Below, piece after piece: positions 3,606 through 33,203 of a DNA stretch of 64,000 nucleotides. Both the position numbers and the translations under genes were made by a program. Below the pieces are notes generated by a model, which did not search any database, was not told the DNA's origin, and worked only from the letters and a program-made list of their open reading frames with translations. Positions within the stretch are counted from its first letter, which is position 1. Each line of letters opens with the position of its first letter. The stretch is from a virus (taxonomy: Duplodnaviria > Caudoviricetes), in the IMG/VR virus record IMGVR_UViG_3300032030_000057, positions 15,509 through 79,508 of that record; one strand, given 5' to 3'.

Positions 3606-3710
3606 TTCTTTTGGTAAGGTAGGCAAATAATCGGTGTACCTGTAGCGAAAACAGGCTACCTACAATTTTTATTAATAAAATTTAGTATTAATCTTTAAAA
3701 ACTTACAATT

Positions 3711-4109
3711 ATGAAGAATTTTGATTTTATTGAGAGTGCAAATGTAGTGTTGAAGAATGTAGGCGCAGACTTGCGCGGTGGTAACAAGGAATACACAAGC
3801 ATCAGCCGCGTATTGAAGGATATCCAGAGAAGGGATATGTTACGCGCTGGTTACGGCAAGGTATTCGAGGCATTAGGTTTGGAGGCTGGAGGCATTACGC
3901 CCGCAGATTTCTTTGCAGCTATACCAGAAGGAATGCACGGCACAGACAAGAAGGGCAACGACTTTGTCGGACTGTGGGGCTGGAAGGTGTTGGAGCGCGA
4001 CGCAAACGGCAAGGTGACAAAGCGCGAAGCCGTATTGCGCAAGGTTACGTCGTGGAGCCCGAACAAGTTGTTCAAGGTCTGGGCTCAAGCAAACGAGTTG
4101 AATAAGTAG
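3711..4109 (+). CDS. First early protein, unknown function (132 aa)
   Basis: AT-rich start context ending aattATG; strongly biased codon usage. Confidence 0.85.
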   Translation: MKNFDFIESANVVLKNVGADLRGGNKEYTSISRVLKDIQRRDMLRAGYGKVFEALGLEAGGITPADFFAAIPEGMHGTDKKGNDFVGLWGWKVLERDANGKVTKREAVLRKVTSWSPNKLFKVWAQANELNK

Positions 4110-4163
4110 TGTTGCAGCTCGACTATGCGAGGGTAAATAGGCGTTAGGCATAGTGCGTTATTA

Positions 4164-4201
4164 GGGCATGGTGTATCCTTTTGGGTGCATTATGCCCTTT
4201 T
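4164..4201 (+). terminator. Probable intrinsic terminator
   Basis: gggcatggtgtatcc-tttt-gggtgcattatgccc stem followed by TTTT. Confidence 0.55.
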
Positions 4202-4229
4202 AGGTCGTATTAATCTAAAAGCAGGAATT

Positions 4230-6950: not shown

Positions 6951-7027
6951 GGGCAGGGTGGCGAATCACTATCGTCGCGCCCGCCTGCCGTCATCAGACA
7001 AACATCATTTAGTATTAACTTTTAAAC
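6951..7027 (+). repeat. Early-region hairpin repeat copy H2
   Basis: ggcagg-gtggcga[ATCACTA]tcgtcgc-gcccg-cctgcc, then gacaaacat and AGTATTAACTTTTAAAC. Confidence 0.7.
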
Positions 7028-16779: not shown

Positions 16780-16811
16780 TTTGCATATTCAAAGTTTTAT
16801 CCGTATCTTTG
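16780..16811 (+). promoter_or_regulatory. Promoter with ATATTCAAA spacer motif
   Basis: TTTG-CATATTCAAA...TATCTTTG, 20-nt spacer. Confidence 0.8.
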
Positions 16812-25760: not shown

Positions 25761-25792
25761 TTTTGAATATTCAAAATAGTTTCTTACCTTTG
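25761..25792 (+). promoter_or_regulatory. Promoter overlapping perfect 16-bp palindrome TTTTGAATATTCAAAA
   Basis: TTTG 25762, TACCTTTG 25785. Confidence 0.8.
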
Positions 25793-25898
25793 CGACGATA
25801 AATTCTTTTTATGGCATTTTTTTTGTGTTTATGGCAACGAACCGCCGAGAGGTCAAGTAGTTGCTTTTCAATAAATCATTTACTAAACATTATACATT

Positions 25899-26429
25899 AT
25901 GAAAATTGAATTCGAAAAAGAAGTGTTACAGTTCTTGAACCTGCCGAGCATTCCAGTAAAGGAGTTCGACGGCAAGTCTGTGTTCAAGGACGGAGTCGCC
26001 ATAGTTGAACTTACAGGCGACAGGTTGGGATATGCAGTCGCTACGTTCACAGAAGAGGACAAAGAGCCGCGTATCAAGAAGACGTTCTCAGTTGAGCCGT
26101 TCGGCAAAATTACGAAGATATTCGTCGTACCTCCTTACATGAATGTCGATATCGAGCACGCAGACGTGGACAACGATTCAAAGAAGGCCATGGAGCAGCT
26201 TGCAGAAGAGGCCGCTGAACTTGAGAATGAAGGTGTTGACGAAAATAAGACAGACATTCCTGAGAACGAGTGGTGCTTTGACGAAATCCACAACATAGAC
26301 GAGGCAAAGGCTTGGCTGAAGTCCTATAACAGCAGAAACAAGATTCGCGGCAAGCTGCCAAAGGACGAGGAGACCATCAAACTCCGTCTTCTCACCATCT
26401 GGAAGGAATCACACAACAACAAACAATAA
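25899..26429 (+). CDS. Hypothetical protein
   Basis: 176-aa ORF. Confidence 0.85.
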   Translation: MKIEFEKEVLQFLNLPSIPVKEFDGKSVFKDGVAIVELTGDRLGYAVATFTEEDKEPRIKKTFSVEPFGKITKIFVVPPYMNVDIEHADVDNDSKKAMEQLAEEAAELENEGVDENKTDIPENEWCFDEIHNIDEAKAWLKSYNSRNKIRGKLPKDEETIKLRLLTIWKESHNNKQ

Positions 26430-27551: not shown

Positions 27552-27947
27552 ATGAACAACAATCTTACAAAAGGACATCTTCAAACCCTCAGGGAGAATT
27601 ACGAGAAAGCGTGTAATGAGTATATCAACACGCTTCTCAATCTCTGGGAGCTTTCACCAGAAAACGGATGGTGGGTTGGTGAGGTAGGCAGTATATATTG
27701 TCACGAAGCGAATGTATCCATGAACATGGAAGAAATAATATACTGCATAGAGCACAGTGTTAGTCTTAACACCTACTATCAATTTATCGACTACACAGAA
27801 AAATGTGACGAATACAATTTCAACCGTCTGTCTCTGAAAAGTTTCTGTGAAGGTGCTCCACGAGTACCACAAGAGACGTTCGACAGATTCGACGCTCTTA
27901 AGCAGGAATTAAATAAGTGTATTAACGACACCAAATCTAAATTCTGA
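27552..27947 (+). CDS. Hypothetical protein
   Basis: MNNNLTKG start; TGATG coupling downstream. Confidence 0.75.
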   Translation: MNNNLTKGHLQTLRENYEKACNEYINTLLNLWELSPENGWWVGEVGSIYCHEANVSMNMEEIIYCIEHSVSLNTYYQFIDYTEKCDEYNFNRLSLKSFCEGAPRVPQETFDRFDALKQELNKCINDTKSKF

Positions 27948-28123
27948 TGGCGACAAAAGCAAGGAAACGAAAAGGAAAAATCCGTATCAAGCAGAGAGTC
28001 CTTATCGAGAAGAAGGACAAGACCAATGTTGTCAGGCCTAATACGACTAGGTATCCTAAGGCAAGGACGAAGGTTCCTTCGAATGGTGTTGTGTTCAAAG
28101 TAAAGCTGAAAAAGAAACAATGA
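27947..28123 (+). CDS. Small very basic protein (58 aa)
   Basis: MATKARKRKGKIRIKQR...; coupled at both ends. Confidence 0.65.
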   Translation: MATKARKRKGKIRIKQRVLIEKKDKTNVVRPNTTRYPKARTKVPSNGVVFKVKLKKKQ

Positions 28124-28536
28124 TTCACAATCTTGCAAACGGAGCAAGACGGTATCTTATCCGTATTGGAAAAGCACTTCCGTTCTTGCTCTGTTTTATT
28201 CTGTCTATATGTTACGCAGAAAACGCGTTTTCTTTGGCCACAGGACGTTTTCTAGAGTTCGATGGATACATTATACTATCGACGCCGATTTCGACGTTTA
28301 TAGCCGAGTTTTTCGAGTACGACATTTTGATTGTGATTATTACACTTATCGTAAGCATAGCAATCGAGGCCTGTAAGTGGAACCTGTGGGCGACGTTCTA
28401 TCTGGGTGTCCATCTGGCAGAGAAATCATACTTTACCTTTGAGCTCGAAATATGGCAGATATGGGTCATAATTTGCGGAAATTTCCTCGTATCTGTATTA
28501 TTTTGTTATAAAGGAATGAAAATTTTAGTTAAATAG
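28120..28536 (+). CDS. Multi-pass membrane protein
   Basis: About four hydrophobic segments. Confidence 0.8.
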   Translation: MIHNLANGARRYLIRIGKALPFLLCFILSICYAENAFSLATGRFLEFDGYIILSTPISTFIAEFFEYDILIVIITLIVSIAIEACKWNLWATFYLGVHLAEKSYFTFELEIWQIWVIICGNFLVSVLFCYKGMKILVK

Positions 28537-31148: not shown

Positions 31149-31538
31149 ATGCAGGAAATCAACGACAGGGCATACACATTGAGACTGGAACCTATACCAG
31201 ATAACGGTAATGGTAAGTTCAGGAAAGGACACACTCCTTGGAATAAGGGGATGACTTGGAAGGAGATGGGTATGACTGATGAGCAGATGCAGAGTAAGAT
31301 TGCCATCCTGAGGGAGAACAAAAAGAAGAATACCTACGCCCACATCCCTGACTTGGTTGCCATGCATGAGAAGCCAGTCATACAGATGGATGAGTACGGC
31401 AACAAGCTTCACTGGTACAGGTCGAGCGCACAGGCAGCTCGGAAACTCGGACTCATAGGCAGGAATATTAGGAAGGTGTGCAGCGGAGAGAGATACAGCT
31501 GCGGAGGCTTTAGATGGAAGTTTGATGAGAGATTTTAG
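31149..31538 (+). CDS. NUMOD3/NUMOD1-type DNA-binding protein without nuclease domain
   Basis: GKFRKGHTPWNKG; KPVIQMDEYG...YRSSAQAARKLG...CGGFRW. Confidence 0.8.
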   Translation: MQEINDRAYTLRLEPIPDNGNGKFRKGHTPWNKGMTWKEMGMTDEQMQSKIAILRENKKKNTYAHIPDLVAMHEKPVIQMDEYGNKLHWYRSSAQAARKLGLIGRNIRKVCSGERYSCGGFRWKFDERF

Positions 31539-31566
31539 GTGCTGAACGAAAAAAGTTCCAGAAATA

Positions 31567-31598
31567 TTTGGAATATTCAAACAAAGTTCGTATCTTTG
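31567..31598 (+). promoter_or_regulatory. Promoter for the RNA array / replication-accessory operon
   Basis: TTTG-GAATATTCAAA...TATCTTTG, 20-nt spacer. Confidence 0.85.
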
Positions 31599-31651
31599 CA
31601 GACGAATAGGATTTTTTGCTATAAATAAAGTATTTAAAGGTTAATACTACC

Positions 31652-31935
31652 AAGCCAAGGTGCTGTGAAGCATAGTAGGCTTTTACGAAGTGAAATGTGT
31701 GCTTATAAATTATATATAAATGATTTTACTCGATTAGTTACACAGCCGAGCGAGGTTTACGTAGAATGTGGTGATTTCATATTCTTTATAGTTTTTACAG
31801 CCGATACATTGTGAAATGCAGTAGGCTTTGTATTGGATTCATTATCCTTCAAAACAACATATCTATATTTTTCTGCTAATTGATTAATAAAGATGAGTTG
31901 TCTCAAGCTGAGGCGTTGCGAAATGTAGTAAGCTT
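31652..31935 (+). ncRNA. Array of 3 (plus 1 degenerate) conserved hairpins: AGCY-RA(G)-stem[UGYGAA]stem-AGUA-RGCU
   Basis: Copies at 31652-31682, 31799-31827, 31905-31935 with compensatory inner stems. Confidence 0.65.
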
Positions 31936-31946
31936 TGAACAGATAT

Positions 31947-32017
31947 CGCGGTAGCAGTGTGACAGTCGCATGCTGGGCTCATAATCCAGAGGTGGGAGGC
32001 AGGTTCCACTACCGCAA
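31947..32017 (+). tRNA. Atypical tRNA-fMet(CAT)-like gene with non-canonical D and T arms
   Basis: C1:A72 mismatch, GCGGTAG/CTACCGC acceptor stem, CTGGG-CTCATAA-TCCAG anticodon arm; no TTCRA, no GG D-loop, no encoded CCA. Confidence 0.7.
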
Positions 32018-32048
32018 CAAATAATTTCACGGAAACAATTGTTAAGCT

Positions 32049-33203
32049 ATGAAGATTTCATTTAAAGTAGACGACGTACTTCCTATGATGTCGCAGGCGG
32101 CATCCGTCGTCAATCCAAAGTCACCGATTCCTGTCCTTACCAGCCTTGTCATCAAGACACGTAAGAAGACTGGGAACGCAACAGTCACCGCGTCCGACAG
32201 CAACACATGGATAGACATGCTCATGCCTCTTGTCGGAGAGGAGAAAGGTGATGATTTTGCATTCACCGTAAACTCGAAAGACTTTGTCGCGGCCCTGAAG
32301 AATCTGTCTGGCAAGACGGTCACACTTGAGCTCAACGAAGAGTCTCACATTGCAAAGGTTACGTACGACAACGGTTATTTCAATATACCGTACGACTCTG
32401 CGAACGACTTCCCGAGGCCAGTGCCAAGCACGGGAAACAGCGTAGAGTGCTTGGTGGATGCAGGCGTTTTGTACGATGCGATATCTTCGGTTGTATTTGC
32501 GGCGGCATCCAATCTCGTAACCATGCCTTATCTTAACGGAATACATATAGACGTAAGAAATGACATGCTTGTCGCTATTGCTTCAGACTTCAACCACGTG
32601 GTGCTGTTCAAGGACCATTCGGTACGTTCTGACACAGACACTGGAGACGGAATCAATATACCTAACAAGCCAGCGCGTATCGTCGAGTCGATTACGAAGA
32701 ATACTGAAGGTGTCGTAAAGCTTTCGTTCTGCGACAACACGTTCTCTGTTTCATGTATGTACTACAGGGTGATATCACTGCTCAACGAAGGCAACTATCC
32801 AGACTTCAACAGGATTCTTCCGAAGGAGAGCCCAATCAATGTCACTCTGACAAGAGAAGACCTCCTGTCTGCATTAAAGAGAATACAGCCGATGAGCAAC
32901 ACGGCCAGCGAGCTCGTCGTATTCAACTTTACGGAAGGCAACCTCAATATCAGCGTTGAGGATGTTGACTTCTCAAAGTCGGCAGGAGAGGACATCAAGT
33001 GCGACTATACTGGAGACGGTTTCCGTATAGGACTCAAGTACAGCTACATGGTATCCCTTCTTTCAAACCTGTCTGGCGATAACGTTACCATGAAGATGTC
33101 GCTTCCACAGAAGCCAGTCGTAATTGTTCCAGATTCTCAGGGAGAGACCAGAGAGGTTATATCAATTGTCATGCCCATGAAACTTAACGGAGATGTACAA
33201 TGA
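32049..33203 (+). CDS. dnaN: DNA polymerase III beta sliding clamp homolog
   Basis: PIPVLTSLVI, TASDS, FPRP, YLNGIHI, ASDFNH, LNEGNYPDFNRILP, IGLKYSYM. Confidence 0.92.
   Translation: MKISFKVDDVLPMMSQAASVVNPKSPIPVLTSLVIKTRKKTGNATVTASDSNTWIDMLMPLVGEEKGDDFAFTVNSKDFVAALKNLSGKTVTLELNEESHIAKVTYDNGYFNIPYDSANDFPRPVPSTGNSVECLVDAGVLYDAISSVVFAAASNLVTMPYLNGIHIDVRNDMLVAIASDFNHVVLFKDHSVRSDTDTGDGINIPNKPARIVESITKNTEGVVKLSFCDNTFSVSCMYYRVISLLNEGNYPDFNRILPKESPINVTLTREDLLSALKRIQPMSNTASELVVFNFTEGNLNISVEDVDFSKSAGEDIKCDYTGDGFRIGLKYSYMVSLLSNLSGDNVTMKMSLPQKPVVIVPDSQGETREVISIVMPMKLNGDVQ

Follow-up and report, generated by a model that had tools for sequence, protein, structure and literature searches.

A structured RNA hairpin with conserved loops, uncatalogued in Rfam, in phages with Bacteroidota-type promoters

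The hairpins repeated in an intergenic stretch of this phage (uncultured; Bacteroidota) are copies of a real structured RNA motif that is uncatalogued in Rfam, and that is found mainly in phages with Bacteroidota-type promoters, with one cellular relative. Its best-supported mechanism is that of an attenuator read by a factor or of a 3′-end module, and it is quite possible, though we put it forward tentatively, that the hairpin serves as a cis-acting module in the leader and intergenic RNAs of a family of Bacteroidota phages.

Anatomy and covariation of the hairpin

The DNA analyzed here (the window, 64,000 nt in full) comprises bases 15509-79508 of a single-contig, 79.5-kb virus record. The original prediction placed three conserved hairpins in one array, together with a degenerate copy at ~31743; the three were borne out, and a solitary fourth copy lies upstream.

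31653-31681, plus strand: hairpin copy 1, AGCC-AAG-GUGCU-GUGA-AGCAU-AGUA-GGCU, then UUUU (R2, 39.0 bits)
31799-31827, plus strand: hairpin copy 2, AGCC-GAU-ACAUU-GUGA-AAUGC-AGUA-GGCU (R2, 40.4 bits)
31906-31934, plus strand: hairpin copy 3, AGCU-GAG-GCGUU-GCGA-AAUGU-AGUA-AGCU (R2, 39.0 bits)
25835-25863, plus strand: solitary fourth copy, CAAC-GAA-CCGCC-GAGA-GGUCA-AGUA-GUUG (R2, 31.5 bits)
31741..31773, plus strand: claimed degenerate copy, at most a decayed 5′ half (ACAGCCGAG)

Three of the four genome copies are thus clustered within 285 nt. Copies 1-3 score 39-40 bits with E ~1e-10 in searches with a 29-nt covariance model (filters off), the next best match in the window after the four copies reaches 11 bits, and a structure-aware regular-expression scan together with two covariance models found none beyond these four in the 79.5-kb genome. 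The degenerate copy did not survive this analysis, as only its 5′ nine bases (ACAGCCGAG) match copy 2, no model matches it and its fold has a z of 0.01 with respect to shuffled sequences. The spacers of the array (117 and 78 nt) are each of unique sequence, as had been predicted. A CRISPR array or ToxI-type repeats are ruled out, given that the copies are only 66-78% identical and that their start-to-start distances, 146 and 107 nt, are irregular.

The element is 29 nt long. A 4-bp outer stem (AGCY/RGCU in the array copies) leads into an internal loop with three to four unpaired bases of the GAR type on its 5′ side (AAG, GAU and GAG in the array copies) and AGUA on its 3′ side; an inner stem of 4-5 bp follows, with U-A as its closing pair and a GYGA (GNRA) tetraloop at its tip. 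The original prediction had this anatomy right (AGCY/RGCU, RAG or GAU opposite AGUA, covarying inner stems, UGYGAA), except that the UGNRA it called T-loop-like is better read as a GYGA tetraloop of the GNRA type closed by U-A; a tRNA T-loop is ruled out because only four nucleotides lie inside the covarying closing pair. Invariant or nearly so are the A of GAR, the closing U-A pair (present in 38 of the 41 distinct sequences described below), the loop positions G-N-G/A-A and AGUA. In alignment A3, GAR has an invariant A, and AGUA is likewise invariant except for its G, which is kept in at least 90%. Rare variants of AGUA are GGUA, AUUA and UGUA, and rare loop variants are the GNRA-plus-one pentaloops GAGAU and GUGAU. 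Most sequences leave pair 8:21 (A3), or 8:23 (A5), open, so that in effect the internal loop is 4x5.

Instances were gathered by pattern scans of viral, genome and metagenome collections and then by model searches, yielding 48 matches in 0.54 Mb of fetched loci. These amount to 41 distinct sequences from phage-like viral and metagenome contigs and from four Bacteroidales MAGs. Over the 41, standard pairs fill 89% of cells and compensatory changes occur at nine of nine pairs, with the caveat that helix 1 is partly circular for the pattern-derived instances, which were selected for a paired outer stem. The covariation score is 0.67 vs 0.20 when shuffled, pairing falls to 13-49% when the 3′ partner is slid by 1-3 columns, and smaller alignments made by hand give the same picture. 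The circularity of selection is offset by three observations. First, the inner-stem column pair that the patterns left free (10:19 in A3, equal to 10:21 in A5) covaries with zero unpaired cells. Second, the fold recurs with new outer stems (CCGA/UCGG, CUCC/GGAG and CUAC/GUAG) in matches from which the models were not built. Third, pattern matches within coding sequence almost never have a paired outer stem. Covariation had been named as a check on the original prediction, and its presence supports a structurally conserved hairpin. Moreover, G-U pairs are frequent, which indicates that the folded strand is the gene strand.

Folding with ViennaRNA is largely in keeping with this model. The minimum free energy (MFE) structure is the motif fold for copies 1 (-12.1 kcal/mol) and 3 (-9.5 kcal/mol), and for copy 2, in a 43-nt context, the MFE slightly favors an alternative pairing with downstream bases (CCGAUACA/UGUAUUGG). 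No family of Rfam 15 matches the hairpin at gathering or at permissive thresholds (E <= 10), and over positions 31400-32150 the permissive search returned only a sub-threshold tRNA and a chance snoRNA. Elsewhere in the window, a Pistol self-cleaving ribozyme lies at 4117-4209 (plus strand), right after the ORF at 3711-4109, and scores 44.5 bits vs an Rfam gathering score of 34.5.

Likenesses to the K-turn, SRP helix 8, domain 5 of group II introns, the T-box and Cas13b/Cas9 repeats were dropped after comparison by eye with the consensus sequences, given mismatches in register or length and the silence of Rfam. A likeness to 16S helix 36 (12 nt in common with the E. coli sequence) is judged coincidental, as it shows neither similarity of flanks nor a model match in hosts. 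A closer relation is that to the bulged-G, or S-turn, motif of 5S loop E and the sarcin-ricin loop. As predicted originally, GAR opposite AGUA within a helix fits the sequence consensus AGUA/GAA of that motif, from which an S-turn fold is predicted, and the sarcin-ricin loop also carries a GNRA loop on the same hairpin. There, however, a GAGA tetraloop lies 1 bp from the S-turn and AGUA is on the 5′ strand, whereas the phage hairpin has a spacing of 4-5 bp, mostly GYGA in its loop and AGUA on the 3′ strand, with the order inverted; in these three respects it departs from what a sarcin-ricin mimic would have to show. Covariance-model searches of 300 host genomes gave no match to rRNA, including the sarcin-ricin loop and 5S. 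The suggestion that the array might be a decoy for a ribotoxin or an EF-binding factor therefore gains no specific support from the distance between tetraloop and S-turn or from the rRNA searches.

Locus, promoter and neighboring genes

The array occupies a gene-free stretch, with the following layout.

31149-31538: NUMOD/HNH-like ORF, 5′ boundary of the gene-free stretch
31539-32048: gene-free stretch of 510 nt, between the NUMOD/HNH-like ORF and the sliding-clamp gene
31567..31598, plus strand: Bacteroidota-type promoter, with -33 TTTG (31567-31570), a 20-nt spacer with ATATTCAAA and -7 TAtcTTTG (31591-31598)
31633..31649, plus strand: leader box TTTAAAGGTTAATACTA, the TTAATAC box upstream of copy 1
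31947..32018, plus strand: initiator-tRNA-like gene of 72 nt, with CAU anticodon, C1:A72 and remodelled D and T loops
32049..33203, plus strand: sliding-clamp (DNA polymerase processivity factor) gene (PHROG 947, E = 6e-52)

The promoter elements were located by direct reading and a pattern scan, and we take them to be a promoter on the consensus of Bacteroides promoters. They lie 54 nt upstream of copy 1, and the predicted promoter finds further support in its Bacteroidota type and its conservation at homologous loci; the extended form precedes hairpins also in L002, L004, L009, L011, L012, L075 and L107. The gap between copy 3 and the tRNA-like gene is 12 nt, and the hairpins are probably co-transcribed with this conserved gene from a real promoter. 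Farther downstream the array adjoins the replication module, the clamp gene being the first ORF 3′ of it, and the order promoter-hairpin-tRNA-clamp recurs in L075. An annotated phage collection gave no DNA match and at most 32% identity to the clamp protein, and a search for the locus in viral contigs by way of the clamp gave no matches. The solitary copy is placed similarly, 42 nt after a promoter (TAccTTTG, 25785-25792) and 35 nt before an ORF at 25899. Near-identical extended early promoters of the form TTTG-N-ATATTCAAA-N9-10-TAnnTTTGC are found on the plus strand at 16804, 21847, 25785 and 31591, and only two of these four are followed by the hairpin.

The tRNA-like gene scores 22.2 bits with the Rfam tRNA model, under the gathering score of 29, and ARAGORN called no tRNA at 31947-32018. 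Its homologues in L009, L012 and L107 nevertheless show compensatory changes in the acceptor and anticodon stems, which argues that the gene is under selection rather than debris. The D-loop GG and the T-loop TPsiC have been lost together; the L004 version differs in that its T loop is normal and its D arm enlarged, and ARAGORN misses the gene in L004 as it does in the window, L009, L012 and L107. Further genes for tRNAs and their kin occur in related phages, namely a gene for tmRNA that closes the tRNA array (L004 5393-5703), an amber-suppressor tRNA with anticodon CUA (L005 9517-9589) and, right after hairpin b in L008 (~582-730), a tRNA-Ser-like gene that is apparently interrupted by a ~60-nt insertion and receives no ARAGORN call.

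Context statistics were compiled for 33 instances in phage contigs. Wherever a downstream gene was identified, the hairpin lies on its strand. In fourteen cases, 3-14 nt separate the end of the hairpin from a tRNA (Ser, Glu, Ala, Gln or Phe) or an initiator-like tRNA, some of these copies lying within inter-tRNA spacers (L132, L009b); six end 18-36 nt before the start of an ORF and seven precede another copy. Nine copies stand 27-58 nt after TAnnTTTG (two in the window, the others in L002, L004, L009, L107 and L170), and those of L003, L065, L090 and L111 lie between co-directional ORFs with no promoter within 130 nt. A TTAA[TA] box, frequently TTGATTAATACTAA or GGTTAATACTAC, is found at most 32 nt upstream in 23 of the 33 instances vs a background of 12%. 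The 8 nt after phage hairpins are 53% T as compared with a local background of ~28%, with T-poor tails (two T at most) in 5 of 23 copies, two of which end 3 nt before a tRNA (L009b, L012b); the tail of copy 3 is weakly U-rich. That the hairpin stands ahead of tRNAs and ORFs alike argues against a role confined to translation or to tRNAs; what remains is transcription, in its elongation or termination, or else the processing and stability of RNA. Beyond the tRNA mimic of the original prediction, then, ordinary tRNAs and protein genes are also preceded by the element.

Related ~80-kb phage genomes have one to three copies each, at one or two loci; one or two is the usual number, and frequently there is a single copy, so that the multivalency stressed originally is not essential. 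Tandem loci are those of the window (three copies) and of L003, L004, L005, L008, L075 and L088 (two each). The motif extends to AT-richer viral contigs (L088 and L090, 26-27% GC) and to many metagenome contigs, and many of the phage and metagenome contigs that carry it seem to be from rumen samples. In cellular genomes it is rare: it is present as a single copy in four Bacteroidales MAGs and in 3 of 151 genomes of a Bacteroidales sample, and a phylum-wide sample of 151 Bacteroidota genomes gave only weak matches at chance level, except in the reference genome G002. A general class of host terminators is rejected on these numbers (one copy per genome in three to four MAGs, 3 of 151 in Bacteroidales, chance level phylum-wide).

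That the element might act as DNA, be it as a recombination hotspot at the borders of tRNA cassettes, a hairpin in single-stranded DNA for replication or a hairpin promoter, or that it might be an inherited repeat with no function, we consider highly improbable. Such a reading would account for the fact that the tRNA behind the hairpin at the syntenic position is not always the same (fMet-like in the window, Phe in L075, Ser in L002) and for the proximity of the replication module. However, the loops stay constant and the stems around them covary, the frequent G-U pairs would read as A-C mismatches on the opposite strand, the orientation always follows the transcribed strand, and the host copy described below lies within an RNA unit running from promoter to terminator. 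A gene for a T7-like RNA polymerase was not found either, in a search whose control was uninformative.

A host small RNA and a proposed reading of the hairpin as an attenuator

The copies in the four Bacteroidales MAGs each conclude a non-coding unit of ~200 nt that is driven by a promoter, at the following loci.

L018 1600-1815: host small RNA
L019 4040-4282: host small RNA
L020 770-1006: host small RNA
L026 1410-1650: host small RNA

Here A5 precedes the hairpin and U8-9 follows it, the classical arrangement of a terminator, and a separate promoter serves the gene that comes next; in the host small RNA, then, the hairpin is terminator-like in form. The small RNA contains a conserved single-stranded stretch (ACAUACUAUCUCUUAAUGUUUAAACUGGA). 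It matches no Rfam family, and BLAST found it in 4 of 301 genomes only, the remaining matches being low-complexity noise. Its 5′ hairpin covaries and is accompanied by 30 nt of invariant single-stranded sequence, within a narrow clade of Bacteroidales.

We tentatively favor, as a reading with an appreciable though less than even chance of being correct, that the hairpin is a leaky terminator or pause module in leader RNA that is recognized by a factor. The outer stem, the GAR/AGUA S-turn and the inner stem would stack into a helix of ~12 pairs with a GNRA cap, and this rigid hairpin, usually U-tailed, would act on RNA polymerase as a pause site or as a leaky intrinsic terminator (attenuator). 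In the window, three such gates would stand in series between an early promoter of host type and the initiator-like tRNA and replication genes, so that transcripts would either stop at a hairpin, leaving short leader RNAs, or read through, and the S-turn and tetraloop would offer a surface to a protein, either NusA-like from the host or encoded by the phage, that sets the rate of read-through. Several observations lead us to infer that the phage hairpins pause or terminate transcription and that a protein reads them: the terminator arrangement of the MAG copies, the U-rich tails in phages, the promoter-proximal and in several loci tandem placement, and the position before tRNAs and ORFs alike. 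Across phages with GC contents of 26-45%, the stems drift and the loops do not change, a pattern that is not accounted for by stability alone and that suggests that the S-turn and tetraloop are read by something. Moreover, the other intergenic hairpins of this phage are long and GC-rich and have no conserved loops of this kind, which points to specific recognition and away from simple terminators. The original prediction would have failed had these been simple terminators, which the conserved loops speak against; the U-rich tail and the terminator role in the host small RNA are, on the other hand, terminator-like.

Several features sit less easily with attenuation. No space is left for a separate promoter in front of the downstream tRNAs and ORFs, which hence depend on read-through. 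L009b and L012b have no U-tract and lie 3 nt from a tRNA, and the tail of copy 3 is weak. As for intrinsic terminators in general, the likeness lies in a hairpin followed by a U-rich run, which is complete (A-tract, hairpin, U8-9) in the four MAGs, and the hairpin energies are -9.5 to -12 kcal/mol. The phage hairpins differ in their conserved loops, in their short AT-rich stems and in a 3x4 internal loop that is atypical beside a U-tract, and only the host small RNA has the hairpin at the end of a transcription unit, phage copies lying 3-36 nt before promoterless tRNAs or ORFs. We found no candidate for the reader protein, nor any NusG-like gene or paralogue in the phage. An analogy, though not evidence, is provided by Bacteroides leader pauses, where pause hairpins are enhanced by NusA and recruit elongation factors (PMC11685472). 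Like the opsX pause hairpins of the capsule operons described there, the phage hairpin is a leader hairpin that could pause RNA polymerase and so give time for a factor to be recruited, but it has no sequence likeness to them and the phage lacks a NusG paralogue.

It is also possible, if on balance doubtful, that the hairpin is a mark for processing or stability that caps and protects the 3′ end of the upstream RNA. The end would be made by termination at the U-tract or, where a tRNA follows, by RNase P, and the loops would be read by a nuclease or a protective protein. The hairpin may in addition insulate the downstream tRNA or mRNA. The 14 of 33 copies at 3-14 nt from a tRNA or tRNA-like 5′ end, where RNase P cuts, would be explained in this way, as would the four copies between co-directional ORFs without a nearby promoter and the fact that the hairpin is the 3′-terminal structure of the host small RNA. 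The RNase P protein binds the leader of pre-tRNA, however, and its binding should be impeded by a hairpin that lies 3 nt away from where the enzyme cleaves; furthermore, a stabilizer alone needs no S-turn, and in the window neither copy 1 nor copy 2 has a tRNA or an ORF as its next downstream neighbor.

Antitermination and RNAs acting in trans as possible alternatives

The processing or antitermination array of the original prediction is still a live option, the second part of it by way of a nut site. Lambda N renders the elongation complex termination-resistant by means of boxB, and the gene order is pL-nutL-N. By analogy, the inner GNRA hairpin and the TTAATAC box would recruit a small Arg/Lys-rich phage protein to form such a complex, which we consider improbable. 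Common to the phage hairpin and the lambda/P22 nut and HK022 put sites are a promoter-proximal leader and a hairpin with a U-A-closed stem (here of 4-5 bp) and a GNRA or GNRA-plus-one loop (GAGAU, GUGAU), as in lambda boxB. It further shares with them a conserved box a few nucleotides upstream and, in some phages, a downstream gene for a small basic protein: in G304, G306 and L065 a highly basic protein of 58-61 aa is encoded 18 nt after hairpins, reminiscent of pL-nutL-N. The homologue in the window and its neighbor are as follows.

27947-28123, plus strand: candidate basic 58-aa protein, Lys/Arg-rich, with C-terminus VVFKVKLKKK; homologue of the G304/G306/L065 protein
28120-28536, plus strand: 138-aa membrane protein, its start overlapped by the gene for the basic protein

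The two genes are kept together in G304, G305, G306 and L065 as well, in several cases directly after hairpins, and neither protein matches a family. The missing family match of the basic protein also weighs against an N-like role, as does the place of its gene in the window, 3.7 kb away from the array, where it is in translational coupling with other genes and forms a pair with that for the membrane protein. In G303 the hairpin is present and no homologue of the basic protein was detectable. In addition, boxB has no outer stem or S-turn of the kind present here, and the hairpin serves as a terminator in the host small RNA, which is the opposite of an antiterminator site. Bacteroidales rrn leaders carry a boxA (AGUUCUUUGAA / AGUUCAUUGA), whereas the rrn-type boxA (GUUCUUUGA) is absent from the phage leader, where the TTAATAC box is found instead, and is not enriched in the window.

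RNAs acting in trans have to be weighed as well. A short box, TAGTATTAAYYTTTAAA, forms a 5′-UTR motif whose reverse complement makes up the leader segment before copy 1. Six occurrences are found in the window vs 1.25 expected, and most of them stand 10-30 nt ahead of a start codon and directly behind a GC-rich hairpin.

3683, 4490, 7010 and 12617, plus strand: box TAGTATTAAYYTTTAAA
10688 and 31633, minus strand: box TAGTATTAAYYTTTAAA

This box could be a phage promoter or operator, or the target of a small RNA. In one form of a role in trans, the array would yield a small RNA with a seed in its leader and the hairpin as its 3′ handle; in the other, that of the original prediction, it would be a multivalent decoy for a protein that binds S-turns. 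The chances of either are slim in our estimation. A complementarity between the 17-22 nt before copy 1 and the boxes 10-30 nt upstream of several phage start codons speaks for a seed (20/22 at 3683 and 16/17 at 7010, where both mismatches in the window would be G-U), as do the co-varying flanks of seed and box in G304 and G306 and the handle in common with the host small RNA. When five related genomes were searched for the box, the first pattern matched two only, and genome-specific seeds gave G304 and G306. On the other side, a DNA site used in both orientations predicts the same pattern equally well, and in a scan of duplex energies the target did not stand out (z = -5.1, a value matched by several random sites), with the segments ahead of copies 2 and 3 and of the copy at 25835 giving no targets at start sites. 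Leaders, moreover, are 25-60 nt long and poorly conserved. An array of antisense guides is rejected, since the leaders of copies 2 and 3 and of the solitary copy have no start-site targets and the first leader is no outlier. As for a decoy, RsmZ/CsrB and ToxI likewise consist of repeated hairpins behind one promoter, as in the window, but the phage hairpins have no CsrA-type GGA loops, are unequally spaced and number one or two in most relatives; the model search of host genomes, too, detected no similarity to the sarcin-ricin loop or 5S rRNA.

A related possibility, which is unlikely though not negligibly so, is that the hairpin is the handle of a dedicated RNA-binding protein common to the host small RNA and the phage leaders, with unit 1 being a phage small RNA of ~85 nt whose seed pairs with the TAGTATTAAY boxes of 5′-UTRs. 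If this were true, the hairpin would be the Bacteroidota counterpart of the terminator hairpins read by Hfq or ProQ, or of N-boxB.

To our knowledge, Bacteroidota work without initiation led by Shine-Dalgarno sequences and without Hfq and ProQ, and we know of few cis-regulatory RNA elements in them. With the RNA biology of Bacteroidota and their phages so poorly charted, a compact hairpin that is absent from Rfam provides a handle on a new interaction of RNA with a protein or with RNA polymerase, one that may time the expression of phage tRNAs, initiator-like and suppressor tRNAs among them, and of replication genes.
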